DNA of 16,001 nt. Origin: a virus. A program made the translations under genes and the position numbers. The stretch lies in the IMG/VR virus record IMGVR_UViG_3300045988_160359, positions 181,570 to 197,570 of that record; one strand, written 5' to 3'. Positions 606 to 16,001 of the stretch are shown here, in pieces (the stretch's first letter is position 1; each line of letters starts with the position of its first letter). The notes under the pieces were generated by a model, which ran no database searches, was not told the origin of the DNA, and saw nothing but the letters and a program-made list of their open reading frames with translations.

Positions 606-666
606 CTTGTATACCTCTTTCAAAAATTTATTTTTGTTGTAAGGTCTTCCTTTACCTTACATATAT

Positions 667-695
667 ATTATATAATTTTTTTTTAAAAAAATCAA
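667..695 (-). promoter_or_regulatory. Promoter cassette copy A (TTGATT-N17-TATAAT plus conserved leader)
   Basis: Minus strand: TTGATT tttttaaaaaaaaatta TATAAT ATATATGTAAGGTAAAGGAAG. Plus-strand AATCAA at 690-695 and ATTATA at 667-672. The leader contains a 7-bp hairpin, GTAAGGT aaaggaag ACCTTAC. It drives the 198..605 gene. Confidence 0.75.
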
Positions 696-715
696 AATAC
701 TTTATATTGAACCAG

Positions 716-2452
716 TTAAAAGAAGATTTTGCGAGGATTTTCGATTTCGTTCCCGTCTTCATCAATGAAATAACCCTTATCAAAATCGCAATATCCCGTT
801 TTGAGACTTACCCAACTGCGGTTAGGATTGTCTCTGCGATGCTCCATCCAGCCCTTGCCGTTCCAAGGAATAACATCCTGAACAGCATCCTCAGTCATCT
901 TCTCCAAATCCAGATAAGTATGGGAAATGTTCCACTTATCAACAAACTGCTCAACGGGGCCATAATCCTTGATTTCGCCAGAACGAATCTTCTTAGCACA
1001 ACACTCACACAGAGTATCAAAGTTGAGATGAGTGATATAGCCGTTGAACGCGATTTCAAATGTATTATCACTATGGATGAAATGGCGCTCAGGGTCAGGC
1101 AATTGGTCGCGCCAATCTTCACACTTTTCATTGTGGAGGTCAACCTCACGCTGACAAACGGGGCACTCAGCAGTCTCGTTATCATAGCAATCCTGACAAA
1201 TCAAACGGCCCTCAACCTCATACAATTCATCAGCATCGCAATAACGACCGCACTCTTCACATTCGCCATCACCATTACAGCTATGACAAATCAAATCGTT
1301 GGAACTCAGGAGACTTTCATCATAGCCGCTGGAAGTCTTACCGCAGCCCAGACACTCACTCACACCAGAATAATAAATATCAATCTTCTCCGGCAAAGCG
1401 GCATTCAAATACATCAGATGTTCAAAACGGAAATCACTATACATATGACCAGTAGAAAAATTCACAGGAATTTTCTTCTCGCCAACCTGAACAGTGTTCT
1501 CGCAATCGGCGCGATATCGGCAGGTAGTATCACGATACTGATAATGAAGGTTCTTCTCTGCCAGGCTTTTCAGCCAATTCAGGCACTCGCCCACCAGTTC
1601 ATCATTACAATAGGGATACTCGCGAATATTAACAATAACATCGCGGTCAACAACAAACAGGCAACGCCACTTCTTGCTGTTCCAATGACCATCAGGAATG
1701 TCCATCTCATAGTCAGGATTTCGCAGATACGCCACCACGACACAAGGAGAGTTCATCATCTCTACGGTACCCTGACGATAATCACCACAACCCTGCCAGC
1801 TCATACAACTGTCCCAGCCCTCGTTGTTATCACTCATAGTCATATAATCCAGAGGATGAATAGACAGGCACAATTCGCCGGTCAGCTTTTTCTGATTGAG
1901 GATACGAGAATGCTCCAAACGGAACTGCTCAAAGATTTCGTTCCACTCAGGGTTCTCAAAAGTGGCGAGAATCTTACCCAGAATCTTCACGGCCTTAGCA
2001 CCAGTATTCACACGAACGCCATTCACAGTGAACTCAGTGCGGCTCCAAGAGTTATTAGCCAGCATGTAGGAATCAATCAGCCGACAAATATTATCTGCCT
2101 GGTCATCATCCAGACCCAAAGCGGAATAAATATTCCGAGGCCAGAAATTTTCACGAATCAAAGTGTCCATCGCAGAGATACCGTTGCCATCTCCGCGATA
2201 ACGAGCATCGTTGATTTCATCGGCCAACTCTTCGACGCCCTTAGAGAAGTTAAAGGACTTCCTCAGAACAAGCTGCTCACCGAACATCGTATAGAGACGC
2301 TCCTTAGCCTCTGCCCACGGCGCCATCGTGTTCGGCATAGACTGAACATAACAACCAGTCGCATCATATTCATCATTCTTGCCGCCATATGCCTCAATGT
2401 AAGCACGAATCAGATCAATATCTTCCGTAGTCAGGGCGTCATACAGATTCAT
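716..2452 (-). CDS. Large hypothetical protein (578 aa) with a C-terminal cluster of CxxC zinc-ribbon-like motifs
   Basis: Real ATG at 2450-2452 (MNLYDALTT), immediately downstream of cassette B. The composition is protein-like (D/E/K/N/W-rich). The C-terminal third carries CLGC, CHSC, CEEC, CQDC, CPVC and CECC motifs. I did not recognise the family. The antisense strand is also open (707..2506 +). Confidence 0.85.
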   Translation of the reverse strand: MNLYDALTTEDIDLIRAYIEAYGGKNDEYDATGCYVQSMPNTMAPWAEAKERLYTMFGEQLVLRKSFNFSKGVEELADEINDARYRGDGNGISAMDTLIRENFWPRNIYSALGLDDDQADNICRLIDSYMLANNSWSRTEFTVNGVRVNTGAKAVKILGKILATFENPEWNEIFEQFRLEHSRILNQKKLTGELCLSIHPLDYMTMSDNNEGWDSCMSWQGCGDYRQGTVEMMNSPCVVVAYLRNPDYEMDIPDGHWNSKKWRCLFVVDRDVIVNIREYPYCNDELVGECLNWLKSLAEKNLHYQYRDTTCRYRADCENTVQVGEKKIPVNFSTGHMYSDFRFEHLMYLNAALPEKIDIYYSGVSECLGCGKTSSGYDESLLSSNDLICHSCNGDGECEECGRYCDADELYEVEGRLICQDCYDNETAECPVCQREVDLHNEKCEDWRDQLPDPERHFIHSDNTFEIAFNGYITHLNFDTLCECCAKKIRSGEIKDYGPVEQFVDKWNISHTYLDLEKMTEDAVQDVIPWNGKGWMEHRRDNPNRSWVSLKTGYCDFDKGYFIDEDGNEIENPRKIFF

Positions 2453-2486
2453 TTTGTATCATTTCCTTTCTTCATCTTATATATAT

Positions 2487-2515
2487 ATTATATTATAAAT
2501 TTATAAAAAAATCAA
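2487..2515 (-). promoter_or_regulatory. Promoter cassette copy B (TTGATT-N17-TATAAT plus leader), identical to copy H
   Basis: Minus strand: TTGATT tttttataaatttataa TATAAT ATATATATAAGATGAAGAAAGGAAATGATACAAA ATG. Plus 2447-2501 is identical to 15947-16001. The leader holds an 8-codon uORF (MKKGNDTK*) whose stop overlaps the gene ATG (ATGA). Confidence 0.8.
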
Positions 2516-2516
2516 A

Positions 2517-2549
2517 TAAGGGTCTTACCGCCGAAAGGTAAGACCCTTA
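2517..2549 (-). terminator. Rho-independent terminator (bidirectional) ending the upstream operon
   Basis: 13-bp stem taagggtcttacc / ggtaagaccctta with loop gccgaaa. T-runs lie on both sides (minus atttgattttttt, plus tttttgggggg). It abuts promoter B. Confidence 0.8.
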
Positions 2550-2585
2550 TTTTTGGGGGGATGAAATCAACAAACTGGGGATATA

Positions 2586-4076
2586 TTACTTAACCTGATT
2601 CATCAGCATCAGAGGAATGGCCATGTCCTTCATATCGCCATCATTCATCAGCATCAGCATCATAGGGTTAAACGCATTGGTAGAACCATTGGCCTGGCTC
2701 ATCAGCATCATAGGAATCAGCATATCCTTCATATCGGACTTGCCATCCATCAACATCAGCATCCACATATTGCCAAAGGGGTTCTCAGAAGTGGGAGTCT
2801 GGCCCATCAGGTTATCAAACAGAGACACAACCTTGGTAGCGAAATTGAAGCCAAACATATTCTTAGAAGGCATAATAGTCTTCTTCTCACCAGCCACGGG
2901 GTCAATGGCAACCAGGTCGCCGGCCTCGGTCTTGCTGATAACGAACATAGGCTTGCGTGCGTGGATAACGACATCGCCCACCGCAATGTCCTTGATAGCC
3001 ACAGGCATCTTGAACAGGAAATTGGAACCATCGAAATTGAACACATCGACGTCCATCAGGTCGCCAGCGCTCTTATCATAAGCGGTCCAGACGCCAGAAG
3101 CATTCTTAACAGCCATACCATACATAGACATACGGATGGAATCGTTGGTAATCTTACCGAAATCAAAATTGAAACCCTTCATTTTATTCTCCTTTTCTTC
3201 ATTATCCTTTTTTTCGTAATTCTTACAGTTTTTACACAGGTCATCACAGCAAATGCTTACCTGGTCAGCGCAAGGCTTGATAACATCAGCCCTAGTATTA
3301 AGTTTGGCAACAGAAACCAAATCGTCCGCACTAATAGGCTTAGTGCTACTTGTAGTTGCAAACCAATCAAGAGTGAGGCTATCCGGCTTTACGGCATTGG
3401 TAATGGGCTTAGTAGTGCTGGTAGGCACATTCCAATCAATAGTAAAACCATCAAGCGTCTCAGTATTGGTAGTCGCCTTAGTCGCAGTATTATCTGCGAT
3501 TGGACCGCCTGTAATGCCATTCCAATTCAAATTAGAGGGCTGAGTGGTCGCATAAGCAGGTGAATACTTATCAGCATCGGTGTAAATTTTTTCATATACA
3601 TCGTTGTAATAGTTATTGGTTTCCTTATACTGCTTAATGATATTCTTGTAATAATATTTATCGTTAATAGTCATTTCTCTCTTCCAATTCAATTCTGCTG
3701 TGGTAGGCTTCGTAGAAATGACATACTCAGTGGCTTCTTTTACCTCAATATTGCACATCAATACTTTGACAATAAATTGAGGGGTCAACTCATTGACAAG
3801 AAACTGACCGAAGGATTTATCATCAAAATAAAAGTTTGGAACATTTTCAACGAATACTTTTTTTGTATCAACGTCAAAATGAACAGATGTTGGAACGATT
3901 TTATTATCAACTCTGGAACAACGTTCCTTAATTGTCTTACGAATCTTACACCAAGCATCGTAATCAAACTTCTTATATTGCTTTTGCTTGACTGCCTTAT
4001 TAAACTTCTCAAACAGTTCATCGAACGCGGATTGAGAACATTTAACATACAGAGTGGGACTCTTAATTGTTGCCAT
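2586..4076 (-). CDS. Repeat-containing protein (496 aa) with a Thr/Ser-rich repeated linker and a Met-rich C-terminal tandem repeat
   Basis: ATG at 4074-4076 with RBS GGAGGAAGATA. The N-terminal part is very AT-rich (K/N/Y/I). The middle has repeats DWNVPTSTTKPI and DWFATTSSTKPI. The C-terminus carries two 23-aa repeats, NMWMLMLMDGKSDMKDMLIPMMLM and NPMMLMLMNDGDMKDMAIPLMLM. An FNF motif recurs (GFNFDFG, VFNFDGSNF, MFGFNFATK). Confidence 0.85.
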   Translation of the reverse strand: MATIKSPTLYVKCSQSAFDELFEKFNKAVKQKQYKKFDYDAWCKIRKTIKERCSRVDNKIVPTSVHFDVDTKKVFVENVPNFYFDDKSFGQFLVNELTPQFIVKVLMCNIEVKEATEYVISTKPTTAELNWKREMTINDKYYYKNIIKQYKETNNYYNDVYEKIYTDADKYSPAYATTQPSNLNWNGITGGPIADNTATKATTNTETLDGFTIDWNVPTSTTKPITNAVKPDSLTLDWFATTSSTKPISADDLVSVAKLNTRADVIKPCADQVSICCDDLCKNCKNYEKKDNEEKENKMKGFNFDFGKITNDSIRMSMYGMAVKNASGVWTAYDKSAGDLMDVDVFNFDGSNFLFKMPVAIKDIAVGDVVIHARKPMFVISKTEAGDLVAIDPVAGEKKTIMPSKNMFGFNFATKVVSLFDNLMGQTPTSENPFGNMWMLMLMDGKSDMKDMLIPMMLMSQANGSTNAFNPMMLMLMNDGDMKDMAIPLMLMNQVK

Positions 4077-4086
4077 TATCTTCCTC

Positions 4087-4260
4087 CTACCTACGTCGCA
4101 TTACTTCTGACTTAATATAGTCGAGGTCAGACTGCGACAGGTCATCATCGACGTCAATAGTATAATTGCCCGCGTCCGCATGAACCAGCGCGTCAATAAT
4201 ATCTTCTACCTCTTGGGTGTGCTTCGCATAGGGCCAAAACGGGTCATTCATATTAAACAT
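4087..4260 (-). CDS. Small acidic protein (57 aa, MFNMNDPFWPYAKHTQEVEDII...)
   Basis: Not in the ORF track because it is under 60 aa. ATG with an AGGTGATAAATT RBS. Its stop (TAG) lies within the RBS of the 2586..4076 gene. I read the frame codon by codon. Confidence 0.5.
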   Translation of the reverse strand: MFNMNDPFWPYAKHTQEVEDIIDALVHADAGNYTIDVDDDLSQSDLDYIKSEVMRRR

Positions 4261-4298
4261 AATTTATCACCTACGTTATCGAAATTTCGGACATTCTA

Positions 4299-4538
4299 TT
4301 ACCAATTAACGGAATTTCGTGAAGCGCATGCCTCAATCTCATCAATCTTTACTACGCCTTTGAATTCAAGATTGTTCTTCAAACAATTCTTAGCATAGGT
4401 AATCATCACATTGTCCCAATCGCCCTCTTCTTCGGCAATTCTATCAATATAATGATTACCGGCGTCAATGGCATCAGTAAGGAACAGGTAATAATCCTCT
4501 TCTATGTCGAGAATATATTTAATCTTATAGATAGTCAT
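4299..4538 (-). CDS. Hypothetical protein (79 aa)
   Basis: ATG at 4536-4538 overlaps the stop of the upstream gene (TAATG). Acidic, no recognised family. Confidence 0.65.
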   Translation of the reverse strand: MTIYKIKYILDIEEDYYLFLTDAIDAGNHYIDRIAEEEGDWDNVMITYAKNCLKNNLEFKGVVKIDEIEACASRNSVNW

Positions 4539-4852
4539 TAGTAAATATCACACCCATCTACAATTTCATCAGAATCATACAGTTTCTGAAAACATCCGAC
4601 CAAATCTTCATTGTCAATGCGAGTGACAGACTTCATACAACTGAGCCTGTCAAACATATCAGTCAAACGATTGTCCTCAATACCCTCATAATGAATAGTC
4701 CTTACCTGATAATCCTCGTGATGAGGAACGCACAGATGGATATTAATGAAATATGCCAAGCTAACCTTCAACAGACTCTTGTTCTCATCAAACATTACGA
4801 CGTCCTTATCATGATAGCCATCGTCCAGGACCAAAGCCTTAATCATATTCAT
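4538..4852 (-). CDS. Hypothetical protein (~104 aa, MNMIKALVLDDGYHDKD...)
   Basis: Track ORF 4538..4888 begins at a TTG. An in-frame ATG at 4850-4852 is preceded by an AAGGAA RBS. The stop is in TAATG overlap with the next gene. Confidence 0.65.
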   Translation of the reverse strand: MNMIKALVLDDGYHDKDVVMFDENKSLLKVSLAYFINIHLCVPHHEDYQVRTIHYEGIEDNRLTDMFDRLSCMKSVTRIDNEDLVGCFQKLYDSDEIVDGCDIY

Positions 4853-4871
4853 CAATTCCTTTCTTGTTTCA

Positions 4872-5075
4872 TTATACAAAATTTCCAAGTTCTTTTAGCG
4901 AAGTGAAGAATTCACTAGCCATAGTCTCATTGAGTTGAAGGTCAATCTTATCTCCACTAAAATTAGTAATAGAGAAATTGTAGATACCATTTTCCTTATT
5001 GAGACGGATGTTGGTAGCAGATCTATCATCATCAGAGTTGATACAATAAGTTTTGTTAATGGTTAACATATTCAT
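4872..5075 (-). CDS. Hypothetical protein (~67 aa)
   Basis: Track ORF 4872..5078 with a TTG extension. Real ATG at 5073-5075 after an AAAGGAATTG RBS. It overlaps the 3' end of the 57-aa Cys ORF. Confidence 0.6.
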   Translation of the reverse strand: MNMLTINKTYCINSDDDRSATNIRLNKENGIYNFSITNFSGDKIDLQLNETMASEFFTSLKELGNFV

Positions 5076-5229
5076 CAATTCCTTTTAATTCATTATATAA
5101 ATCCATAATCAATCTATGAGAACATTTCAGAGGATATGTTTCCATATCTGTATCATATTTTTTATATGGACATTCATCACATATAAATTCAGTACAGCAT
5201 TCAAGTGCTTTTTTAATTTCTTCTTTCAT
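5056..5229 (-). CDS. Cys-rich mini-protein (57 aa, MKEEIKKALECCTEFICDECPYKKY...CSH), putative Zn-binding
   Basis: Not in the track. Its ATG is the ATAAG-ATG of cassette C, only about 13 nt after the -10, so it is near-leaderless. CCx4CxxC...CxH pattern. The stop overlaps the next gene's start region. Confidence 0.4.
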   Translation of the reverse strand: MKEEIKKALECCTEFICDECPYKKYDTDMETYPLKCSHRLIMDLYNELKGIDEYVNH

Positions 5230-5240
5230 CTTATATATAT

Positions 5241-5269
5241 ATTATATTATATTTTTTTTAAAAAATCAA
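5241..5269 (-). promoter_or_regulatory. Promoter cassette copy C
   Basis: Minus: TTGATT ttttaaaaaaaatataa TATAAT ATATATATAAGATG. Plus AATCAA at 5264-5269 and ATTATA at 5241-5246. The -35 overlaps the stop of the upstream 49-aa ORF. No terminator lies upstream. Confidence 0.75.
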
Positions 5270-5415
5270 TCGAATAGATTTTTACCAAACTCTCTGCGGT
5301 ATGCGTCTTCGAACATATGCCAATTACCGCAGAAATAGGTATCTACATACCAGTCAACCAAATCGGCGTTAACAGCCTCTTTGATAATGCTAGCAAATAC
5401 ATCTGTGTAATCCAT
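5266..5415 (-). CDS. Small protein (49 aa, MDYTDVFASIIKEAVNADLVDWYVDTYFCGNWHMFEDAYRREFGKNLFD)
   Basis: Not in the track. The ATG overlaps the stop of 5415..5723 (TAATG) with a GAGGAGG RBS inside the upstream gene's end. I read the frame codon by codon. Confidence 0.5.
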   Translation of the reverse strand: MDYTDVFASIIKEAVNADLVDWYVDTYFCGNWHMFEDAYRREFGKNLFD

Positions 5416-5723
5416 TAATATGCCTCCTCAACCTGATACCAAGTAGCAAGAGAACGATGAGTATAATAGCGTGTATACGCATCTACCCAAATAGCCTCCT
5501 CAGCCCACTGAATATGTTCTTTGGCCAGCTCATCGCGTACCTGCTCAACATAATAGTCAATAGTATTATCAAAAATAACACCCTGCTCAACCAAATTATC
5601 ATAGAAAGTATCTACAATAATCTGAGCGCGCATATTGACTACGCCGGGGTCACAAACAATAAATGCAGAACGAGCTCGGTCATCAGATCTCAAACCATAT
5701 TTTATATGATAACGATAATTCAT
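5415..5723 (-). CDS. Paralog family member 3 of 3 (102 aa; N-terminal YRYHIKYGL..., C-terminal ...TWYQVEEAY)
   Basis: ATG at 5721-5723. Its RBS GAGGAG lies in the last codons of the upstream paralog. It shares the N-terminal YxIxYGL motif and the C-terminal WYxVE motif with 5726..6082 and 6082..6447. Confidence 0.8.
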   Translation of the reverse strand: MNYRYHIKYGLRSDDRARSAFIVCDPGVVNMRAQIIVDTFYDNLVEQGVIFDNTIDYYVEQVRDELAKEHIQWAEEAIWVDAYTRYYTHRSLATWYQVEEAY

Positions 5724-5725
5724 AA

Positions 5726-6082
5726 TTACAACTCCTCAAATGGGTCATTAATGTCCATCAATTCCGCCTGATACCAAATATGGTCTTCAAGCATATCATT
5801 GTATTTATTAACCCCAAGGGCCCAGAATGATTGACCTTTATATTCCGGACCCACCGGACGTTTGCCAGTCAAATATTTTACTTTATCTCGGTATTCTTCA
5901 ACAAACTCACCAATAGAATGATTCCATTTAAATCTCTTTCCACGAGCCAGAGCTTCAAAATGATTACGAGCAATACATTGAGCATCTTCAAGAGCCTCTT
6001 CAAGACTCTCGCTATAACGAGTCATAGTTATCATATCGCCCACATCATAAGTGCCGTAAGTAAGCAAATATTTATGAAACAT
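5726..6082 (-). CDS. Paralog family member 2 of 3 (~118 aa, MFHKYLLTYGTYD...WYQAELMDINDPFEEL)
   Basis: Track ORF 5726..6097 is extended. Real ATG at 6080-6082 with a GGGAGGAG RBS, in TAATG overlap with the stop of 6082..6447. Confidence 0.8.
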   Translation of the reverse strand: MFHKYLLTYGTYDVGDMITMTRYSESLEEALEDAQCIARNHFEALARGKRFKWNHSIGEFVEEYRDKVKYLTGKRPVGPEYKGQSFWALGVNKYNDMLEDHIWYQAELMDINDPFEEL

Positions 6083-6447
6083 TAGAACTCCTCCCACTCT
6101 TCTTCTATTGGTATTAACGAAGGAGCTATATCAGGGGCTTTTTCTACTTTATACCAAACATAGTCATCAATCATTGACCAGTATAAATTATTAACATAGT
6201 CCCATGTAGCATCCCATTTATCCCAAGTATTAGGTAAATGTAAATCTTTTATTACTTTTTCGTAAACTTTCTTTTGGCTGGGAAATCGGGCACGGTTTTC
6301 ATTCGCTTTACGGAAAAATAAACTATGGGCTACCCGTGCCGCTCGGGATTGAGCCTGTTCTATATTAGAGGCATTAATAAATATACGACCTTTAAATATG
6401 CCTTCATGAATTATATTATATAGACCATACTCAATCTTATACATCAT
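6082..6447 (-). CDS. Paralog family member 1 of 3 (121 aa, MMYKIEYGLYN...WYKVEKAPD...EEEWEEF)
   Basis: ATGATG at 6447 after the cassette D leader AAGGAAGGAAA. Acidic Trp-rich C-terminus. Confidence 0.8.
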   Translation of the reverse strand: MMYKIEYGLYNIIHEGIFKGRIFINASNIEQAQSRAARVAHSLFFRKANENRARFPSQKKVYEKVIKDLHLPNTWDKWDATWDYVNNLYWSMIDDYVWYKVEKAPDIAPSLIPIEEEWEEF

Positions 6448-6479
6448 AAGCCCATTTCCTTCCTTTACCTTATATATAT

Positions 6480-6508
6480 ATTATATAATAATTTTTAATA
6501 AAAATCAA
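6480..6508 (-). promoter_or_regulatory. Promoter cassette copy D
   Basis: Minus: TTGATT tttattaaaaattatta TATAAT ATATATATAAGGTAAAGGAAGGAAATGG. Plus AATCAA at 6503-6508 and ATTATA at 6480-6485. Confidence 0.8.
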
Positions 6509-6517
6509 TAAAAAAAA

Positions 6518-6544: not shown

Positions 6545-6550
6545 TATATA

Positions 6551-6718: not shown

Positions 6719-6733
6719 TCTTTTACCTCTTCA

Positions 6734-7045: not shown

Positions 7046-7050
7046 ATCAA

Positions 7051-8775: not shown

Positions 8776-8778
8776 AAA

Positions 8779-10018: not shown

Positions 10019-10364
10019 CAACTATTTCCTCGCTGGGGTCATATATCATCAATGACCCATCCTCATTATATAGCGGACAAAAACTGCCATATCCACCGAC
10101 GAAAATATACATAACGCCAGTAATAGAATCGGCATACACCGTGGCGGCATGTCCGCATACCTCACCACTATCTATTTTTAGAAATCGCTCACTGTCAATA
10201 GGGAAAAAACTCCCGTCTTGTAGTTCTTCCATTTTGTTCGCTGGACCGTTTACATAACTTTGTTCCATCTTATGGACTGTCTTAACTACTACCCAAATCA
10301 TCATACCCAAGAGTAATATCAGACAGACCCAAATCATAAAACGGTCTAAATCTATCTTCTTCAT
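10002..10364 (-). CDS. Membrane-anchored small protein, paralog 1 of 2 (120 aa)
   Basis: ATG with a GGAGGT RBS. TM helix (FMIWVCLILLLGMMIWVVV), then FPIDSERFLKIDSGEVCGHAATVYADSITGVMYIFVGGYGSFCPLYNEDGSLMIYD. Confidence 0.8.
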   Translation of the reverse strand: MKKIDLDRFMIWVCLILLLGMMIWVVVKTVHKMEQSYVNGPANKMEELQDGSFFPIDSERFLKIDSGEVCGHAATVYADSITGVMYIFVGGYGSFCPLYNEDGSLMIYDPSEEIVDVGFD

Positions 10365-10376
10365 TTGACTACCTCC

Positions 10377-10661
10377 TTAATCGAGATTGCCAAAAATTTG
10401 ATTCATTGCTTTGCGGTATTCAGTTTCGGTGATTTCATCATAGTCGGCTTCGGACTCGTGAAAGTAATAGTCTTCGGTCATACCACGCTTAACGATTTCA
10501 TCGCTATCAAAATACTTAGTCGCAATCTCGTCCAAGTTATCTTCAATAAAGTCGTGAAGTGTATAATAGATTTCGTCCTCAGTATTACCTCTGAAATAGA
10601 CATAGAACTCGTCCTTGTCTCTGAGCGCGGTAGTGATGGTAATATGGAAATATTTAGTCAT
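10377..10661 (-). CDS. Acidic hypothetical protein (94 aa)
   Basis: ATG at 10659-10661 is in ATGA overlap with the stop of the upstream 57-aa ORF. GGGGTGA RBS. Very D/E/Y-rich. Confidence 0.75.
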   Translation of the reverse strand: MTKYFHITITTALRDKDEFYVYFRGNTEDEIYYTLHDFIEDNLDEIATKYFDSDEIVKRGMTEDYYFHESEADYDEITETEYRKAMNQIFGNLD

Positions 10662-10831
10662 TCCGCATCACCCCGATTGATGTAGGTATCAATGATATTC
10701 AGACAATGAGCGATATAACATCCTTCGTCGTTATCCAGTTCGCCATGTTTGACCAAAGCATCAATCTCAGTCCGAATGTTCATCAGACAGGCATTGGCTT
10801 CGACCTTATTAACAGTAGTAGGAATATTCAT
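10658..10831 (-). CDS. Small protein (57 aa, MNIPTTVNKVEANACLMNIRTEIDALVKHGELDNDEGCYIAHCLNIIDTYINRGDAE)
   Basis: Not in the track. Perfect GGAGGGTAAGTA RBS. The ATG is in TAATG overlap with the upstream stop. I read the frame codon by codon. Confidence 0.55.
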   Translation of the reverse strand: MNIPTTVNKVEANACLMNIRTEIDALVKHGELDNDEGCYIAHCLNIIDTYINRGDAE

Positions 10832-11037
10832 TACTTACCCTCCATCATCTTGTCAATGTAATTGCGGAACTCATAAATGCGCTGAATGTCATACTCGGCT
10901 TCCTCAATTTCCTTTTCGTGCATCGCTACACTAATCGCATCAAACAAACCATCCAGACGCTCCAACGCCATATCCAGATTCATCAGTTTGTCGATATAAG
11001 TGCGCGTATCAAAATTATCAGATAATTTCATCTTCAT
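10831..11037 (-). CDS. Small protein (~68 aa, MKMKLSDNFDTRTYIDKLMNLDMALERLDGLF...)
   Basis: Track ORF 10831..11181 is a chimera. Its 5' half overlaps, in another frame, the real 58-aa ORF 11018..11194. The best start is the second ATG of ATGAAGATGAAGATG, 8 nt after GAGGG. Confidence 0.5.
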   Translation of the reverse strand: MKMKLSDNFDTRTYIDKLMNLDMALERLDGLFDAISVAMHEKEIEEAEYDIQRIYEFRNYIDKMMEGK

Positions 11038-11194
11038 CTTCATCACCCTCGACAATCTCCTTGTCATACCACCAAGCCAAATCATCATACGGGCCACAGG
11101 TATTCTCGCGGAGATACTTATAGATTTTCGATTCCGACCAATCACAGGGGACATTGATGAAATTGCGAACAGTGCGCTCATACCAAACTTTCAT
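11018..11194 (-). CDS. Mini-protein paralog (58 aa, MKVWYERTVRNFINVPCDWSESKIYKYLRENTCGPYDDLAWWYDKEIVEGDEDEDEII)
   Basis: Not in the track. GAGGATGTGG RBS. The ATG is in TAATG overlap with the stop of 11194..11391. Paralogous to 11592..11735 (VPxDW..K...K.LREN....Y.D..W). Confidence 0.55.
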   Translation of the reverse strand: MKVWYERTVRNFINVPCDWSESKIYKYLRENTCGPYDDLAWWYDKEIVEGDEDEDEII

Positions 11195-11391
11195 TATTCC
11201 ACATCCTCATACAGATTAGTTTCACAGATAGGGCAATCCGCCCAGCCGTGGGTCTCTTCCTCAGTCCAGTCATCGAAATAGATAGGCTCCCAACACTCAG
11301 GACAGATGAACCAGGCTTCATCACGATTATAAAGAGAACCATAAGTCTCCTTACAATATTTAGCAAGACGGTTAAATTCTCGACGAGCCAT
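11194..11391 (-). CDS. Zn-ribbon mini-protein (65 aa; CPEC...CPIC)
   Basis: Perfect AAGGAGG RBS and an ATG start. Two CxxC pairs about 19 residues apart: FICPECWEP...WADCPICETN. Confidence 0.8.
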   Translation of the reverse strand: MARREFNRLAKYCKETYGSLYNRDEAWFICPECWEPIYFDDWTEEETHGWADCPICETNLYEDVE

Positions 11392-11401
11392 AAGTTCCTC
11401 C

Positions 11402-11590
11402 TTAAATCATTTTAACAGTAGATGCCTGAAACACCACTTCGCCAGTACTCATATCCACAATGAGAAAATCAACGAAAGGAAGAGTACCATAGGCAAATTT
11501 CTTAGTATAAATATCGAATGCTTCCTTGTAGGTATCAAAATCGGTCTCAACAACATCATCGTCATCCCAAATTTCAACAATCTTAAACAT
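11402..11590 (-). CDS. Small acidic protein (~62 aa, MFKIVEIWDDDDVVETDFDTYKEAFDIY...)
   Basis: Track ORF 11402..11695 is 5'-extended in another frame over the 47-aa ORF. The real ATG follows a GAGGGATTGAT RBS, 1 nt after the upstream stop. Confidence 0.55.
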   Translation of the reverse strand: MFKIVEIWDDDDVVETDFDTYKEAFDIYTKKFAYGTLPFVDFLIVDMSTGEVVFQASTVKMI

Positions 11591-11591
11591 A

Positions 11592-11735
11592 TCAATCCCT
11601 CGCATATGACCATTCCATATCATTGTAATCAGCAGGAGCATTCTCTCGGAGCAATTTCTCAACCTCTTTGTCAGTCCAATCATCAGGGACTTCAACTACA
11701 TCAAGGACGGAATAATTCACAAAAACAGTTCTCAT
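11592..11735 (-). CDS. Mini-protein paralog (47 aa, MRTVFVNYSVLDVVEVPDDWTDKEVEKLLRENAPADYNDMEWSYARD)
   Basis: Not in the track. First ORF after cassette F, with leader RBS AAAGGTGATTTCTCA ATG. It aligns with 11018..11194. Confidence 0.55.
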   Translation of the reverse strand: MRTVFVNYSVLDVVEVPDDWTDKEVEKLLRENAPADYNDMEWSYARD

Positions 11736-11764
11736 TGAGAAATCACCTTTCCTTTACCTTATAT

Positions 11765-11793
11765 ATATATTATATTATAAATTTTTAAAAAAA
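11765..11793 (-). promoter_or_regulatory. Promoter cassette copy F
   Basis: Minus: TTGATT tttttaaaaatttataa TATAAT ATATATATAAGGTAAAGGAAAGGTG. Plus AATCAA at 11788-11793 and ATTATA at 11765-11770. Only a weak 6-bp hairpin lies upstream (gagaga...tctctc), so there is no strong terminator here. Confidence 0.75.
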
Positions 11794-11797
11794 TCAA

Positions 11798-12094
11798 TTA
11801 GAGAGAATATTTCTTGATAAAATCTCTCAAACCGTAGTCATAAAGGTCGGCATCAAGCTGGTCATCGTTGATATCGTCGAACGCATTAGGGATTTCGTAG
11901 ATTGCGTAATCATACTCGCGTTCACCCTCCTCGTAGAGGTCGGTCAATGTAGTATAACTATCAATCAGTTCATCACACAAACATCGACCGATTTCATCGG
12001 CCTCACTAAAAGTATTAATGTGGTAGATGCCGCAATTGAAATATCCGTGGAGCCCGCCATAATAGGGCTCAGTTGCGTAAATTGCTACTCTCAC
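11798..12094 (-). CDS. Acidic protein (~98 aa), a possible ArdA-like DNA-mimic or anti-restriction candidate (low confidence)
   Basis: The best start is GTG at 12092-12094. GAGAGGAG lies 7 nt upstream and the GTG is in 4-nt GTGA overlap with the HNH gene's stop. The track's upstream ATG (12121) has no SD. The N-terminal VAIYATEPYYGGLHGYF loosely resembles the ArdA N-terminal IYVANLxxYNxGxLxGxW motif. The C-terminal half is strongly D/E/Y-rich. Confidence 0.6.
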   Translation of the reverse strand: MRVAIYATEPYYGGLHGYFNCGIYHINTFSEADEIGRCLCDELIDSYTTLTDLYEEGEREYDYAIYEIPNAFDDINDDQLDADLYDYGLRDFIKKYSL

Positions 12095-12804
12095 GCTTTT
12101 ACTCCTCTCAAATAATTCCATTTACGAGAATACATAGAACCATTCATACGAATGGTATTGCACAGCTTAAAGAAAAACTTCTCTTCGGTGGTGCTAACCT
12201 TAGAATTGTGCTGACAAAGCCAATCCATAGCCTCCATTGCCGTGCCTCTAAAACCATCATTGTTGATAAAAACAGTATCAAGAGTGATACCCTCTTGAAC
12301 AATGAAGGCGCGACAAGTAGTATCAGTAGTAGTAGCCAGCCATTTACCCAGAATATCGCCGCAGTTTTCCAGAATTTTCCCAGTATCCCGGTCGGTGGGT
12401 TCGGCGGTCTCAATAGGTTTAATAGGCTCAGTACCTGCATTGATTACAACAGGGACAGGGCTCGCCACAATATCATTGTTAGCGCGCATAAGATTCTCGG
12501 CCTGGCTAACCCATTCCAGATTATCAACGCGGTTATTGCGCTTATTGTGATCGAGATGGTCAACAGTGAATGCCTCGCGGTCTTCGATGGGACACCACGT
12601 ATACATTACCAAACGATGTGCCATACGGTTGCCGTGTTTGGTCTTTACAGACACATAGCCGTTCTGAGAATAAATTTTCTTAGGAATAGGACGCTTATGA
12701 ATGTCCTTAAAGTTGCCGAAGTTGGAAACCCAAACTCCATACTCCTTATTAAACTTCCACTTTTCAAACTCAATATGCAAGGTGGGAAAAATCATCATAA
12801 ACAT
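12091..12804 (-). CDS. HNH homing endonuclease (NUMOD4 N-terminal motif plus HNH_3-type core)
   Basis: EFEKWKFNKEYGVWVSNFGNFKD matches the N-terminal signature of phage HNH homing endonucleases. HRLVMYTWCPIEDREAFTVDHLDHNKRNNRVDNLEWVSQAENL is the HNH_3 catalytic motif (DH..-N-N.....NL.W......N). ATG is M2 of the track ORF, with an AAAGGAATTG RBS. It is driven by its own cassette copy G. Confidence 0.85.
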   Translation of the reverse strand: MFMMIFPTLHIEFEKWKFNKEYGVWVSNFGNFKDIHKRPIPKKIYSQNGYVSVKTKHGNRMAHRLVMYTWCPIEDREAFTVDHLDHNKRNNRVDNLEWVSQAENLMRANNDIVASPVPVVINAGTEPIKPIETAEPTDRDTGKILENCGDILGKWLATTTDTTCRAFIVQEGITLDTVFINNDGFRGTAMEAMDWLCQHNSKVSTTEEKFFFKLCNTIRMNGSMYSRKWNYLRGVKA

Positions 12805-12834
12805 CAATTCCTTTCTCTTTTACCTTATATATAT

Positions 12835-12863
12835 ATTATATAATAATTTTTAAAAAAAATCAA
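12835..12863 (-). promoter_or_regulatory. Promoter cassette copy G (drives the HNH endonuclease)
   Basis: Minus: TTGATT ttttttaaaaattatta TATAAT ATATATATAAGGTAAAAGAGAAAGGAATTG ATG. The -35 (plus 12858-12863) lies inside the left arm of the terminator stem at 12860-12898. Confidence 0.8.
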
Positions 12864-12898
12864 TAGAGGATTTTACGTTTGGTAAAATCCTCTATTGA
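12860..12898 (-). terminator. Rho-independent terminator ending operon H
   Basis: 17-bp stem (12860-12876 / 12882-12898; ...atagaggattttac gtttg gtaaaatcctctat...). Followed on the minus strand by a U-run (plus 12852-12857 A-run). It begins 9 nt after the stop of 12907..13191. Confidence 0.8.
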
Positions 12899-12906
12899 CT
12901 AAACTA

Positions 12907-13191
12907 TTAGAAATTGACGTGCGCGTCTACCTGAACGCTATATACAGCCTTGGGTTTCATCTCAGCGAAAGCAACCCACTCTTGATGCCCCTGTTCAGCT
13001 CTCGCTCTATCAGGATATCGCTGAACGATGATAATATCGCCATCGCCCTTCCACATAGCGGTTTCATAGCCCTGGTCCACAGTATCACAAGTGTCAATGG
13101 TATAATCGCCAATAACATCGTGACCCACCTTATCAGCCTTTGAATAATCATTATTCATAATACCGAACATCAAATCAAACAAAGAATCCAT
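12907..13191 (-). CDS. Acidic hypothetical protein (~94 aa, MDSLFDLMFGIMNNDYSKADKV...)
   Basis: Track ORF 12907..13215 is extended. The ATG at 13189-13191 follows a perfect AAGGAGGTACAGT RBS. Confidence 0.75.
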   Translation of the reverse strand: MDSLFDLMFGIMNNDYSKADKVGHDVIGDYTIDTCDTVDQGYETAMWKGDGDIIIVQRYPDRARAEQGHQEWVAFAEMKPKAVYSVQVDAHVNF

Positions 13192-13202
13192 ACTGTACCT
13201 CC

Positions 13203-13595
13203 TTACGGCGCCCAATCTATCGGCTCAATCTCCATCCACCATCCGGCTCTAAACCAACTGGTGAGAGGATTTGACCGAGCCCTCTGACATCTATATACTC
13301 GATAATTAAAATCGTAAACTTTATTATAAATAGTATTGTAGGTAGCTTCATTAGTCTCTGCGTCATCACCATACCGTTCAATGTATCGAACGATATTTGC
13401 GCGTTCCGCATCTATCTGAAACTTATCATAGTCGCAAAGGCGTATAAAGAAACAGACAATGCCTAATGCGAGGAAAGCACAAAGAGCAACTCCTCCGATG
13501 ACACTAATACATTCATTTGTATCAACATCTCGAATCTTATGAAATAGAATGCTACAAATTACAAATACTACAAGAGGCAGCAATAAGAGAATCAT
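13203..13595 (-). CDS. Two-TM membrane protein, paralog 2 of 2 (~130 aa; ...NPLTSWFRAGWWMEIEPIDWAP)
   Basis: The ATG (M3 of the track ORF) is in 4-nt ATGA overlap with the upstream stop, 6 nt after AAGGAGG. Two hydrophobic helices precede a soluble C-terminal domain ending in the TSWFxxxW motif shared with 13592..13996. Confidence 0.8.
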   Translation of the reverse strand: MILLLLPLVVFVICSILFHKIRDVDTNECISVIGGVALCAFLALGIVCFFIRLCDYDKFQIDAERANIVRYIERYGDDAETNEATYNTIYNKVYDFNYRVYRCQRARSNPLTSWFRAGWWMEIEPIDWAP

Positions 13596-13996
13596 TTCCA
13601 TCCTCCTTCTGGAAATTCTACGGTAGTTAGGTCAGCCATCCAAGAGCGACCAAACCAAGAAGTCCATTCGTTGTTATAAGTATCGCGCATCGAGATAACC
13701 AATTCATTGTATTCATCTACATCGTGGACGAGTTCCGAGGTCAGACGAGCATCTTTGCGCCAATACTCATCATTAATACGCAGTTCAAGGAGCGCACGCT
13801 CCTTATCCATCGCGTCTTGGGTGCGGAGGTCAGAATCAAATGGCGTACAGGCACACATCGCCCCGCACACAATAAGACCAATCGCACAGCAAACCGCAAT
13901 TAAGAGAAAAGCCATAGAAATATCACGGTTTTCAAACTTATGGCACAGATAAGCGCTGATAATAAATACTATAATAAACAAAATAGTAGTTAGCAT
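13592..13996 (-). CDS. Two-TM membrane protein, paralog 1 of 2 (134 aa; ...NNEWTSWFGRSWMADLTTVEFPEGGWK)
   Basis: ATG at 13994-13996 overlaps the upstream stop (ATGCTAA). Helices VFIISAYLCHKFENRD and ISMAFLLIAVCCAIGLIVCGAM align with the paralog. Confidence 0.8.
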   Translation of the reverse strand: MLTTILFIIVFIISAYLCHKFENRDISMAFLLIAVCCAIGLIVCGAMCACTPFDSDLRTQDAMDKERALLELRINDEYWRKDARLTSELVHDVDEYNELVISMRDTYNNEWTSWFGRSWMADLTTVEFPEGGWK

Positions 13997-14184
13997 AGAT
14001 GAACAACCTCCACGATAATTTCAGTGGCTTCCACAATAATTGTTATAGACAGAATATTCAAAACTGCCCAAATGAACCATTTGCCCTGCTCACGGTAATA
14101 TTTAAGTATATGATAGGATTTATACATATAAGCAAAAATAACAACCATACAAAGGGCAAATGTAATAATACCAAAAACAGACAT
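13990..14184 (-). CDS. Two-TM membrane mini-protein (~64 aa)
   Basis: Real ATG is M4 of track ORF 13990..14193, after GGGGTGATTACT. Two hydrophobic helices separated by KSYHILKYYREQGKW. Confidence 0.7.
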   Translation of the reverse strand: MSVFGIITFALCMVVIFAYMYKSYHILKYYREQGKWFIWAVLNILSITIIVEATEIIVEVVHLC

Positions 14185-14189
14185 AGTAA

Positions 14190-14366
14190 TCACCCCTGAA
14201 ATAGATTATAAATAATACAGGCCGCGCAAGCAAGAGCGCCAGTAAGTGGGAGAATAATGCTCCATTTATGATTAAGGTAAGGGTCTTCAATGCTCTCTAA
14301 GCCGATAGCAAGGAGGATAATACCAAAACCAAATAAAAGGAGTTGGTTCAAAATATTGAAAAGCAT
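14190..14366 (-). CDS. Two-TM membrane mini-protein (58 aa, MLFNILNQLLLFGFGIILLAIGLESIEDPYLNHKWSIILPLTGALACAACIIYNLFQG)
   Basis: Not in the track. The ATG is in TAATG overlap with the upstream stop, and its own stop TGA lies in the next gene's RBS. I read the frame codon by codon. Confidence 0.55.
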   Translation of the reverse strand: MLFNILNQLLLFGFGIILLAIGLESIEDPYLNHKWSIILPLTGALACAACIIYNLFQG

Positions 14367-14539
14367 TATAACACCTGTTCCTTTATAAAGAATATAGTCA
14401 TAAGAATAAATCCTATAACCTCAAAAATTACTACTATTCCAAAAGGCCATTCTCCATTTTTAAACGCGCACCACATTGTCTCAATCCCTATACAGATAGA
14501 GCCTCCAAGAACCATAAGGAGAATAAGGTGGAATATCAT
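14366..14539 (-). CDS. Two-TM membrane mini-protein (57 aa, MIFHLILLMVLGGSICIGIETMWCAFKNGEWPFGIVVIFEVIGFILMTIFFIKEQVL)
   Basis: Track ORF 14366..14611 is 5'-extended over the upstream gene. The real ATG at 14537-14539 follows a perfect GGAGGAACGCT RBS, in ATGA overlap with the stop of 14536..14724. Confidence 0.65.
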   Translation of the reverse strand: MIFHLILLMVLGGSICIGIETMWCAFKNGEWPFGIVVIFEVIGFILMTIFFIKEQVL

Positions 14540-14724
14540 AGCGTTCCTCCAATCAATTGAACAATGAGGACAATCCACATAGTAATGAGAGCAACTGCGA
14601 CAAGAATACACATAAATGCTATCATAATATCGAATAATTTACTCTCACTCTTTTCGTGGAGAAATGTATTAAAAAAGAAAAAGCCGATACCTGTGAGAAC
14701 GAGAGCAAACAGTATTTTATTCAT
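14536..14724 (-). CDS. Two-TM membrane mini-protein (62 aa)
   Basis: ATG at 14722-14724 with a GGGGAGGAAG RBS, in ATGA overlap with the phosphoesterase stop. Helices ILFALVLTGIGFFFF and IMIAFMCILVAVALITMWIVLIV. Confidence 0.75.
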   Translation of the reverse strand: MNKILFALVLTGIGFFFFNTFLHEKSESKLFDIMIAFMCILVAVALITMWIVLIVQLIGGTL

Positions 14725-15464
14725 TGCGGCTTCCTCCCCAATCGGTAGCCACGCTTACGAGCGTTATACGTGGCTCTATCAATCGTATCGCGATGAATAG
14801 ATACGATGTTCGCGAGATGGCCTTCTTTCATAAATTTATTGAAATTTATAGGCTCGTAGCCAATCACATCAGCGCATACATTAAAGTGATATTTATCATT
14901 TTTATGAGAGCGGGAATGATCGTGCCCGTGAATATTCATACACCAATCACATCCCTTAATAGGCTCGTGAGAGAGCATCAGCTTCTCTCCAATGACTAAA
15001 ACACCAGTGTATACCTCGTCGAAAAGGCGGTTATCGGCGCTGACTTCCCAGCAAGGAACATTGTCGAGAAAATCATAACTATCGGTAATGGAGTAAGCGC
15101 AATCAGGATAGAGACGCTTCATCTCATCCAATGCTTCGTGCTTCTGGAATAGACCCTTATCAAATTTCTGCCTGAAAATCTGACGCTTATAGTTGGAAGC
15201 ACCAGAATCGTGGTTGCCCATTACGAGAATTTTATACTTGGCACGAAGCTGGCACACATAGGAAATATCGCCAACATCACCAAGGATAATCAGCGTATCA
15301 GCCCTGCCACACTTAGCATTAATGCGTTTCACTTGCTCTTCGGCGGAGGGACGGTCAGCATATACGTGAATGAGGTCGGGGTCATTAAAATGCGTATCTG
15401 AAATAATATGACACGTACCGGACGCGCCCCAATACTGAAACGGCGGGTAGAGACCTTCAATCAT
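14721..15464 (-). CDS. Calcineurin-like metallophosphoesterase (Ser/Thr-phosphatase-like), 247 aa
   Basis: MPP signature motifs occur in order: IISDTHF (DxH), LIILGDVGD (GDxxD), LVMGNHD (GNHD) and NIHGHDH (GHxH). ATG at 15462-15464 with an AAGGAGGAGG RBS. Confidence 0.85.
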   Translation of the reverse strand: MIEGLYPPFQYWGASGTCHIISDTHFNDPDLIHVYADRPSAEEQVKRINAKCGRADTLIILGDVGDISYVCQLRAKYKILVMGNHDSGASNYKRQIFRQKFDKGLFQKHEALDEMKRLYPDCAYSITDSYDFLDNVPCWEVSADNRLFDEVYTGVLVIGEKLMLSHEPIKGCDWCMNIHGHDHSRSHKNDKYHFNVCADVIGYEPINFNKFMKEGHLANIVSIHRDTIDRATYNARKRGYRLGRKPQ

Positions 15465-15466
15465 AG

Positions 15467-15697
15467 TTAATCCTCCTCCTTATAAGCGGGAATTCTCGGC
15501 TGAGGCATCGGAATCTCAGCCCAATAATCAGTATCATCAACAGGATAACTTTTTTCAAGACGCCACCAAACATAGTGGCCTTCGCCTTCATCTTCGAGAC
15601 TACATACATCACAGGCGAAAGGATTGCCCGGCTCGAAACATACGAGAACATCAGTTCCAAGTTCAGGTCGCTTCTCAGAAATCAAATGCCACTTCAT
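15467..15697 (-). CDS. DUF551-like protein (76 aa; MKWHLISEKRPELGTDVLV...DYWAEIPMPQP)
   Basis: The N-terminal MKWxxISEKxPE...VLV and the C-terminal W..IPMP pattern match my memory of the DUF551 family common in enterobacterial phages. GAGGAGGATACGCT RBS. Confidence 0.55.
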   Translation of the reverse strand: MKWHLISEKRPELGTDVLVCFEPGNPFACDVCSLEDEGEGHYVWWRLEKSYPVDDTDYWAEIPMPQPRIPAYKEED

Positions 15698-15709
15698 AGC
15701 GTATCCTCC

Positions 15710-15952
15710 TCACATAATCTCATCGAACGCCTGTTCGATTGCGTCATCTTCCCGATAATGATAACTGTCTTCCAGTTCAATGGCTCGTGCAGCGATTCTA
15801 TCCACACAAGCCTCGGACTCAGGGTAGTTTTCAAGAATATAATCGCGCTTGGTAAGGAAACGATACTCATCGTATGCATCTTTAAGGTCATTCATAGTCA
15901 TCTCAACAGTCTGGCCGTATTCAGTTCTGAAACGCATTACAATATCATTCAT
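15710..15952 (-). CDS. Acidic hypothetical protein (80 aa), first gene of operon H
   Basis: ATG at 15950-15952 directly after the cassette H leader. That leader and the first two codons (MN) are identical to those of the 716..2452 gene. Confidence 0.75.
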   Translation of the reverse strand: MNDIVMRFRTEYGQTVEMTMNDLKDAYDEYRFLTKRDYILENYPESEACVDRIAARAIELEDSYHYREDDAIEQAFDEIM

Positions 15953-15986
15953 TTTGTATCATTTCCTTTCTTCATCTTATATATAT

Positions 15987-16001
15987 ATTATATTATAAAT
16001 T
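15987..16001 (-). promoter_or_regulatory. Promoter cassette copy H (partial; -10 and leader only inside the window)
   Basis: 15947-16001 is identical to 2447-2501 (copy B). By that offset the -10 lies at 15987-15992 and the -35 would be just beyond the window end. Confidence 0.6.

Follow-up and report, generated by a model that had tools for sequence, protein, structure and literature searches.

Why would a virus place nearly the same short DNA element ahead of one gene after another? This question is raised by a 16,001-nucleotide (nt) stretch of viral DNA, positions 181,570 to 197,570 of IMG/VR virus record IMGVR_UViG_3300045988_160359 (this whole stretch is called the window below), in which an initial annotation had described eight copies of a promoter-plus-leader cassette tiling a one-strand gene block. 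We conclude that the cassette probably serves as a transcription punctuation unit, combining a terminator, a strong promoter for the host sigma A factor and a leader, in an early or host-takeover-like region of the phage genome. From sequence features we infer which polymerase is used, exactly where transcription begins, how strong the promoter is and that expression is early.

Geometry of the eight cassettes

The element is centred on a 17-mer core, TATAATATATATATAAG, that has eight copies on the minus strand of the window, seven of which are exact and one of which (copy A) carries a single mismatch (...ATGTAAG). Only 0.01 matches would be expected by chance, and none of 200 shuffled sequences reaches eight, which bears out the eight copies of the initial annotation. 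That annotation gave plus-strand extents without orientation and missed that all eight copies read on the minus strand; strand and copies C and F aside, its extents are right. The cassettes, with their predicted parts, are as follows.

603..695, minus strand: cassette A; promoter 667-695 (-35 690-695, -10 667-672), one-mismatch core 656-672, ATG 603-605.
2450..2552, minus strand: cassette B; terminator 2514-2552, promoter 2487-2515 (-35 2510-2515, -10 2487-2492), core 2476-2492, Shine-Dalgarno (SD) sequence AGAAAGGA, ATG 2450-2452 of a gene for 578 amino acids (aa).
5227..5269, minus strand: cassette C; promoter 5241-5269 (-35 5264-5269, -10 5241-5246), core 5230-5246, ATG 5227-5229 right after AAG.
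6445..6545, minus strand: cassette D; terminator 6517-6545, promoter 6480-6508 (-35 6503-6508, -10 6480-6485), core 6469-6485, ATG 6445-6447.
8711..8808, minus strand: cassette E; terminator 8778-8808, promoter 8747-8775 (-35 8770-8775, -10 8747-8752), core 8736-8752, ATG 8711-8713.
11733..11797, minus strand: cassette F; promoter 11769-11797 (-35 11792-11797, -10 11769-11774), core 11758-11774, ATG 11733-11735.
12796..12900, minus strand: cassette G; terminator 12858-12900, promoter 12835-12863 (-35 12858-12863, -10 12835-12840), core 12824-12840, ATG 12796-12798 of the HNH endonuclease gene.
15950..16001, minus strand: cassette H, cut by the window edge; core 15976-15992, -10 15987-15992, ATG 15950-15952, with the -35 and terminator beyond 16001.

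The seven promoters listed with coordinates match TTGATT-N17-TATAAT exactly, where 0.41 matches would be expected by chance at one mismatch or fewer. The spacing of 17 nt had been claimed for all eight copies and holds for the seven inside the window; the -35 of H lies beyond base 16001, and in the orthologue of H on a 93%-identical contig (L092; related loci are cited here by such labels) a hairpin is followed by TTGATT-N17-TATAAT. The -10 hexamer TATAAT matches consensus at six of six positions in every copy, and the -35 hexamer TTGATT matches TTGACA at four of six positions in all seven copies that can be assessed within the window. When the copies are aligned, they present a near-pure A/T segment, TTGATTTTTTTAAAAAWTTATWATATAATATATATATAAGRT, followed by purine-rich sequence. 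The 17-base-pair (bp) spacer consists solely of A and T in the window copies, and the discriminator and start region after the -10 is an A/T-only, invariant ATATAT-A/G-TAAG.

All eight copies are intergenic and co-oriented, and each faces the start of an open reading frame (ORF) 0-50 nt past the core. For copy F, the extent first given (11744-11793) clips 4 nt of the -35, which in fact lies at 11792-11797 and abuts the TAA stop (11798-11800) of the upstream gene. Copy C had been called truncated. Its core is complete, and an ATG immediately after ...TATAAG opens a 57-aa ORF (5056-5229), such that what looked like a leader is coding sequence. The -35 of C contains, within TTGATT, the TGA stop (5266-5268) of an upstream 49-aa ORF.

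Conservation among related phages

Selection on the cassette was assessed with 39 distinct alignments covering seven cassettes, which were built from flanking homology and are therefore not biased by the motif (positions are counted from the first T of TATAAT). Only 8 of 1833 positions (0.4%) between -30 and +16 are mismatched, and divergence is 1.6% at +17 to +49 versus roughly 4-8% in the flanks. At the level of sequence comparison, this shows that purifying selection acts on all of -30 to +16 and, with less force, on the leader. Each orthologous copy also retains its own spacer variant, and thus the uniformity of the cassettes reflects selection rather than ongoing homogenisation.

A separate set of 244 TTGANN-N17-TATAAT sites in related loci was chosen without regard to downstream sequence, and 136 of these sites carry ATATATATAAG at two or fewer mismatches. 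Their spacer consensus, tttt.aaAAAatTaTga, ends in a TGn extended -10. Together, the orthologue footprint and this unbiased set bear out the original proposal that conservation extends beyond what sigma70 recognition needs. A relaxed scan yielded 259 cores, of which 201 have TTGATT at the 17-bp spacing, and the other -35 variants in the clade are TTGAAA, TTGATA, TTGACA and TTGACT. Such TTGAnn variation is the pattern that would be expected for region 4 of a sigma70-family factor.

The exact 40-nt pattern is present in 84 IMG/VR stretches, mostly contigs of 120-200 kilobases (kb). Two of the contigs are close relatives with 88-95% identity to the window, and the DNA similarity of most others to the window is limited to the 55-80-nt cassette. 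In the closest large contig (197 kb), all exact matches to the pattern fall within the part that is homologous to the window. Further copies, for which the initial annotation had proposed a search, are plentiful: hundreds occur in phage contigs of 120-200 kb, and a relative contig carries about 10 between L094:6844 and L085:13437, making the block at least about 30 kb long.

A search of 185,579 bacterial and archaeal species genomes found the exact extended motif on just 17 contigs, all from Bacillota metagenome-assembled genomes (MAGs) assigned to Lachnospiraceae, Eubacteriales, Gemmiger, Faecalimonas, Clostridium and Tissierellia. Of these 17 contigs, 15 encode proteins that also occur in the phage loci. 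Thus, the motif is specific to the phage clade, and the idea that it copies a host promoter is ruled out.

Human-gut metagenome contigs of 179-199 kb carry window proteins exactly, as found by exact-protein look-ups, and locus L086 is 99.99% identical to window positions 1-9190. The source is an uncultured human-gut phage of about 190 kb that is TAG-recoded. Its host is probably a member of the Clostridia, for which Bacillota MAG binning and the style of promoter and SD sequence give a weak hint. A search of GenBank phages by DNA and with two window proteins returned no match and hence no annotated relative.

Terminators, leaders and predicted transcripts

An intrinsic terminator is predicted ahead of five of the eight copies: B (fold of -24.2 kcal/mol, z = -6.5), D (-16.5 kcal/mol, z = -4.6), E (-20.9 kcal/mol, z = -5.1), G (-24.8 kcal/mol, z = -8.8) and, by way of its L092 orthologue, H. 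The U-tracts of B, D, E and G continue into the TTGATTTTT of the -35, and the 3' arm of the G terminator stem includes the TTGA of the -35. These fused terminators had escaped the initial annotation. No terminator hairpin lies upstream of A, C or F, and these three copies (A following the 578-aa gene) would act as internal booster promoters. Across the clade, an upstream fold of -12 kcal/mol or lower was found for 50 of 216 cassettes versus 19 of 216 controls.

With this arrangement, the window reads as a series of predicted operons running from H to G, from G (with F) to E, from E to D, from D (with C) to B, and from B (with A) to a terminator near the left end of the window, beyond which a promoter of another kind takes over.

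140..178, minus strand: predicted intrinsic terminator with a 14-bp stem and U run, after the 135-aa gene (fold of 95-200 on the minus strand, -43.7 kcal/mol, z = -5.0).
30..58, minus strand: predicted non-cassette promoter of perfect consensus, TTGACA-17-TGcTATAAT (12/12 plus TG in the promoter scan), serving the next gene downstream.

The leaders had been divided into two subfamilies, which alignment confirms as real, with E and G as looser members of their groups. In most cassettes the leader is C-free and purine-rich, and the start codon lies about 21-24 nt beyond the AAG. The SD sequence of the cassette leaders, typically AGAAAGGA, is A-rich and stands 10-13 nt before the ATG, and most internal genes have a GGAGG-type SD at 5-10 nt. 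The AGAAAGGA sequence is complementary to ...CCUCCUUUCU, the 3' tail of Firmicutes 16S ribosomal RNA. Gene C (57 aa, Cys-rich) has no SD, and its ATG directly follows the core; its predicted 5' untranslated region would be about 5 nt long, given the start site proposed below.

Leaders from six of seven copies are unstructured, with minimum free energies of 0 to -2.7 kcal/mol that are the same as those of shuffled sequences, and a conserved leader RNA structure is therefore ruled out. Only A has a long leader (about 50 nt), with a 5' stem-loop at 638-661 (-10.7 kcal/mol, z = -3.3). An upstream ORF (uORF) was considered in B, E and H, where an ATG immediately follows the AAG. The predicted peptide of B and H is MKKGNDTK, whose stop codon overlaps the main ATG, and the E version runs out of frame into the gene. 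The clade consensus at the position of the uORF start codon is ATA, and we rejected the uORF as a functional element.

We also considered that leader conservation might simply reflect the general ribosome-binding site of the phage. This is only partly true, because GAAAGGAATTGATG does occur at two internal genes, yet most internal genes have the GGAGG type. A translation-initiation module, GAAAGGAATTGATG(N)ATG, is repeated at 4842-4869 and 5065-5092 (the two internal genes) and at 12794-12821 (the leader of cassette G). A close relative, L014, lacks window positions 4880-5063, which contain a 68-aa gene between the first two GAAAGGAATTGATG copies.

The relatives offer an indirect view of the start site. 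In four related loci, the 5' end of a transfer RNA (tRNA) gene lies between -4 and +9 nt relative to the AAG, indicating that transcription starts at or before core position 13. This position is the canonical seventh nucleotide after a TATAAT -10. The tRNA positions thus indirectly support TATAAT as the likely functional -10, with a predicted +1 at about core position 13 and the conserved AAG at about +3 to +5. The promoter-plus-leader reading of the initial annotation is therefore supported by the -35 and -10 at 17 bp, by the ORF-facing placement, by the TTGAnn and TGn variation in relatives and by tRNA starts located where TATAAT predicts.

A tRNA gene lies within 150 nt downstream of 19 of 298 cassettes in the relatives. 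The tRNA genes so placed include two for suppressor tRNA(CUA), one 49 nt downstream in L064 and one 63 nt downstream in L106. Each of the four suppressor tRNA(CUA) genes found in the related loci lies on the same strand as a cassette and 49-400 nt downstream of it (L064, tRNA 10449-10522 on the minus strand; L106:5115-5305; L001:3871-4213; L066:138-647), in loci that were collected around cassettes and so are a biased sample.

Structured RNAs also occur behind the cassettes of relatives. At L001:5503-6322, tRNA-Ser begins no more than 5 nt after a cassette variant, and a full-length ROOL RNA (RF03087, 338 bits) and tRNA-Tyr come next in that order. An 85-bit match to the OLE model lies beside tRNAs at L021:5210-5602. 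A cassette-driven structured RNA of about 180 nt begins at the predicted +1 at L001:3911-4100, L066:178-375 and L002:320-519 (minus strand), with further examples in L119, L127, L130 and L134. It has a closing stem, AUAUAGC/GCUAUAU, and a long-range GUCCA/UGGAC pairing, with compensatory changes at 11 of 39 predicted pairs, and it precedes tRNA arrays that often include a suppressor tRNA. This RNA has no match in Rfam even at E = 1. Separately, an 18-nt sequence, TTTAATAGTGTACATAAA, which contains the palindrome TGTACA, occurs once per contig as a hairpin loop in several RNA contexts in phage contigs of 130-200 kb. A search with it gave 29 further viral loci (L119-L147) of mixed contexts, and it could be a kissing-loop or protein-binding module.

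Probable early expression, rival readings and known systems

The genetic code of the block bears on when it is expressed. Just downstream of the cassette block, past the left end of the window (L085:12605-21257), each gene has one to six in-frame TAGs, as in those for two radical-SAM-like proteins of 508 and 477 aa; this region points to a phage that recodes TAG, a context missing from the initial annotation. The 41 ORFs of the window require no in-frame TAG, and their stops are TAA (24), TGA (16) and TAG (1). A TAG-poor cassette block beside TAG-bearing downstream genes fits expression before the code switch. Furthermore, early genes of recoded phages have been proposed to stay in the standard code (10.1101/2021.08.26.457843), and the TAG-free block matches this model, which supports an early role for it.

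Relatives also have, at varying intergenic sites (L085:2745-3638, L085:9002-9895 and L100:5806-6699), a 297-aa gene that is absent from the window; its product shows repeated CxCxCGN motifs and a C-terminus resembling a nuclease. The insertion points correspond to window positions ~8004-8019, 2554-2699 and 11346-11402. The gene carries six to eight in-frame TAGs despite its place inside the TAG-free early block, and is probably a mobile homing-type gene.

Every plausible gene of the window lies on the minus strand; there are about 41, mostly shorter than 150 aa in the ORF list. Scans with Pfam and PHROG assigned a function to few ORFs of the block, and most cassette-driven genes are without a match. 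Rfam and tRNA scans of the window also gave no match.

198..15952, minus strand: one-strand block of about 41 mostly small ORFs (ORF list, Pfam/PHROG scans).
12091-12798, minus strand: HNH endonuclease gene (Pfam/PHROG scans).
14721-15464, minus strand: metallophosphoesterase gene (Pfam/PHROG scans).
~8799-9487, minus strand: DUF5052 lipoprotein gene (Pfam/PHROG scans).

Three other features of the block and its surroundings stand out. The 135-aa gene behind cassette A (198-605) has no Pfam or PHROG match and a G+C fraction of 0.535 (201-600) versus about 0.30-0.49 in the rest of the window. At 13990-14724, four tiny hydrophobic ORFs (about 58-67 aa) lie in a row, flanked by larger ORFs that resemble membrane proteins. 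Upstream of the block in a relative, a divergent region (L094:5650-5760) has a promoter-like site within repeated TTGCAA(A)TTGCAA motifs, adjoining a divergently transcribed helix-turn-helix/DUF6291 gene. This arrangement resembles a set of operators through which a phage regulator might act where the early block begins.

These observations suggest the following model. Host RNA polymerase carrying the primary sigma factor, sigma A, would recognise the cassette promoters, very strong ones on this reading, when the DNA enters the cell. At five of the eight copies, the intrinsic terminator hairpin would stop the upstream operon, and its U-tract would merge into the -35 TTGATT, to be followed by the 17-bp A/T spacer, the -10 TATAAT and the A/T-only start region. 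The A/T-only stretch from the -35 to +2 would melt easily, which may be useful on freshly injected DNA, and the unstructured purine-rich leader with its AGAAAGGA SD would favour translation. The outcome would be at least five operons, with boosters at A, C and F, that express about 40 small standard-code genes of the ~30-kb block right after infection.

Several points weigh against this model of host-driven early punctuation. Copy C, which has no SD, would need to be translated with almost no leader. The window copies are without the TGn extended -10, although it is common in relatives. The proposed host is drawn only from Bacillota MAG binning and from promoter and SD style. Because the cassette also drives tRNA and non-coding RNA (ncRNA) genes in relatives, its role may be that of a strong promoter for general use, not confined to the early phase. 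Finally, the invariance from -6 to +5 goes beyond known sigma A contacts, and an extra factor may take part.

This last point leads to an alternative that we regard as unlikely but not far-fetched, in which the -10 to +5 segment (TATAATATATATATAAG), possibly with the spacer, also binds a phage-encoded or virion-delivered factor, such as a repressor for early shut-off, or else an activator or a modifier of the polymerase that gives these promoters an advantage over those of the host. Conservation at -6 to +5 and in the spacer exceeds the needs of a sigma70-family factor, T4 early promoters have extra consensus regions and respond to the injected Alt protein (PMC2988021), and the distribution of the motif in species genomes (17 contigs, 15 with phage-locus proteins) sets it apart from a host-promoter copy. 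Yet no candidate regulator was identified, there is no dyad symmetry beyond the (TA)n tract, and the A/T-only sequence may be selected merely for easy melting and escape. Far less probable is that the phage encodes its own RNA polymerase or sigma factor for the cassettes, which would make them middle or late promoters, or long ones in the style of phiKZ or T7, instead of promoters for host sigma A. The contiguous conserved motif of about 45 nt does recall long phage-polymerase promoters. However, the TTGAnn variation (including TTGACA), the fixed 17-bp spacing, the frequent TGn and the perfect TATAAT speak for a sigma70-family factor, as do neighbouring non-cassette promoters of perfect sigma70 consensus; the architecture is of the bipartite sigma70 type and does not match the single motif of T7-like or phiKZ/AR9-like polymerases. 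The driven genes are small and TAG-free, as is typical of early genes, and none of the large ORFs sampled from 640 kb of related loci, a small set read in the standard code only, resembles a polymerase. Chance AT-rich low complexity between genes, which the initial annotation had named as the finding that would overturn it, deserves virtually no credence, even though the segment is nearly all A/T and contains a (TA)n run. This idea is refuted by the excess of core matches over expectation, the fixed spacing, the uniform orientation, the constant intergenic position upstream of ORFs and the orthologous and clade-wide conservation.

A different role, which would add to promoter function rather than replace it, is possible but somewhat doubtful: the cassettes might be mainly recombination substrates, in which identical units of 60-100 nt mediate the gain, loss and swapping of small genes and gene conversion homogenises the copies. 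The promoter-early stem-loop (PeSL) cassettes of T4-type phages act exactly in this way (PMC2839356, PMC4122927). When the window is compared with 19 related loci, about 6-7 of some 14 indel or replacement breakpoints abut a cassette, a set of events that is small and phylogenetically non-independent. Among these breakpoints are 2554/2699 (B), 4865/5223 and 5428 (C), 6526/6551 (D), 11577/11746 (F) and 665-719 (A). Relative to random gene junctions, the enrichment has a binomial p of 0.04-0.01, again for a small and non-independent sample. At both C and D, the gene content of the slot takes several alternative forms, with at least three different inserts at D. Furthermore, B and H are 100% identical over 55 nt (window 2447-2501 and 15947-16001), or about 82 nt when L092 is used, including the first two codons, ATGAAT. 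This identity points to one or more recent duplication or conversion events. The repeat also breaks assemblies, with several metagenome contigs ending inside B or H. Against a primarily recombinational role, half of the breakpoint events fall at cassette-free junctions, and in several of these a homing-endonuclease-like gene takes part, either the mobile 297-aa one or one of GIY-YIG type; one deletion occurred through the repeated ribosome-binding region instead of a cassette. The individual spacers of orthologous copies also argue against rapid homogenisation, and recombination leaves the clade-wide conservation in unrelated genomic contexts unexplained. Recent spread by recombination, which the initial annotation had offered as an explanation, therefore fits the B/H event and fails as the main cause, since copies keep their own spacers and the consensus recurs in otherwise dissimilar phages. 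A mobile element resembling a miniature inverted-repeat transposable element, or purely recent duplication, was rejected as the main cause for the same reasons.

The punctuation model can be extended in a way that we offer only tentatively, with rather low confidence. The cassette could be a clade-wide master promoter for the standard-code phase of a large group of TAG-recoded Clostridia phages, fired by host sigma A upon DNA entry to express TAG-free takeover genes. In relatives it stands directly ahead of tRNA arrays, suppressor tRNA(CUA) genes, the ROOL RNA and the structured RNA of about 180 nt. The code switch would then be timed by the build-up of suppressor tRNA from an always-on early promoter, without a dedicated late promoter, and a phage factor might act through the -6 to +5 segment to shut down the whole regulon at a later stage.

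The findings have several uses. A 45-nt promoter consensus can now be scanned for in widespread uncultured gut and rumen phages of 120-200 kb, where it can delimit the early regulon and improve the annotation of operons, tRNA genes and ncRNA genes. The cassette is also a candidate for a very strong, compact promoter-terminator part for use in Firmicutes. Genes and suppressor tRNAs placed behind host-type promoters bear on the question of what triggers the code switch. As another case of phages evolving host promoters that are 'better than consensus', the cassette alone leaves current understanding unchanged.

Among known systems, the PeSL cassettes of the T4-type phages RB49, phi1, PST and nt-1 (Arbiol et al. 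2010, PMC2839356; Comeau et al. 2014, PMC4122927) offer a close parallel. They too are small repeated units with a strong sigma70-like early promoter and a terminator stem-loop, ending in an SD and start codon, and their stem-loop can lie upstream of the -35 or overlap it. Many PeSL copies stand upstream of ORFans, as here with 8 copies in 16 kb and about 10 in about 30 kb. Both kinds of cassette occur in regions of small ORFans. PeSLs are associated with indels and replacements between close relatives, and the cassettes may be too, the enrichment of breakpoints here being only suggestive. In contrast, PeSLs belong to a T4-type lineage with Gram-negative hosts, whereas the phage studied here matches no GenBank phage and probably infects Gram-positive Clostridia. 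Its cassettes are far more uniform, with an invariant 17-nt core and an A/T-only spacer, and have a stem-loop in five of eight copies only.

The early promoters of T4 itself are 'uber' promoters with UP, -35, TGn and -10 elements (Hinton 2010, PMC2988021). They resemble the cassettes in being numerous, in being near-consensus promoters for host polymerase and in having extra phage-specific conserved positions, which are read as optimising competition for that polymerase after infection. They differ in having a GTTTAC-like -35 where the cassettes have TTGATT followed by a T-run, and in lacking the invariant ATATATATAAG after the -10. Furthermore, there is little conservation in the UP-element region of the cassettes, which have no known Alt-like modifier.

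As summarised in a passage of PMC6873191 that cites Stewart et al. 1998, the host-takeover module of Bacillus phage SPO1 comprises 26 small early genes, spread over multiple operons whose promoters and ribosome-binding sites are strong. On that description, the two share a Firmicutes-type sigma A setting and a dense array of small early genes of unassigned function, divided into many short operons that each have strong promoter and translation signals. They differ in that the block studied here is longer (at least about 30 kb) and that its leaders use the A-rich AGAAAGGA SD rather than GGAGG; no homology to SPO1, its genes 37-60 included, was found in the phage collection.

Finally, the stop-codon-recoded gut phage clades Jade, Sapphire and Agate (Borges et al. 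preprint, 10.1101/2021.08.26.457843) have Firmicutes-associated gut genomes of about 180-200 kb in which TAG is recoded and recoded codons are concentrated outside the early region; the phage studied here resembles them in these features. The promoters of such phages themselves are absent from this preprint, in which the word 'promoter' occurs 0 times. In the theta-ribozyme paper (PMC10879173) it occurs once, for the T7 promoter of a cloning construct, and none of the phages' own promoters is mentioned. By comparison of features, the cassette is an analogue of the PeSLs, of the T4 early promoters and of the SPO1 module, not a member of those lineages. It is thus a clear new example of a known phage strategy, with no new mechanism, and what distinguishes it is its extreme uniformity and its link to recoded phages.

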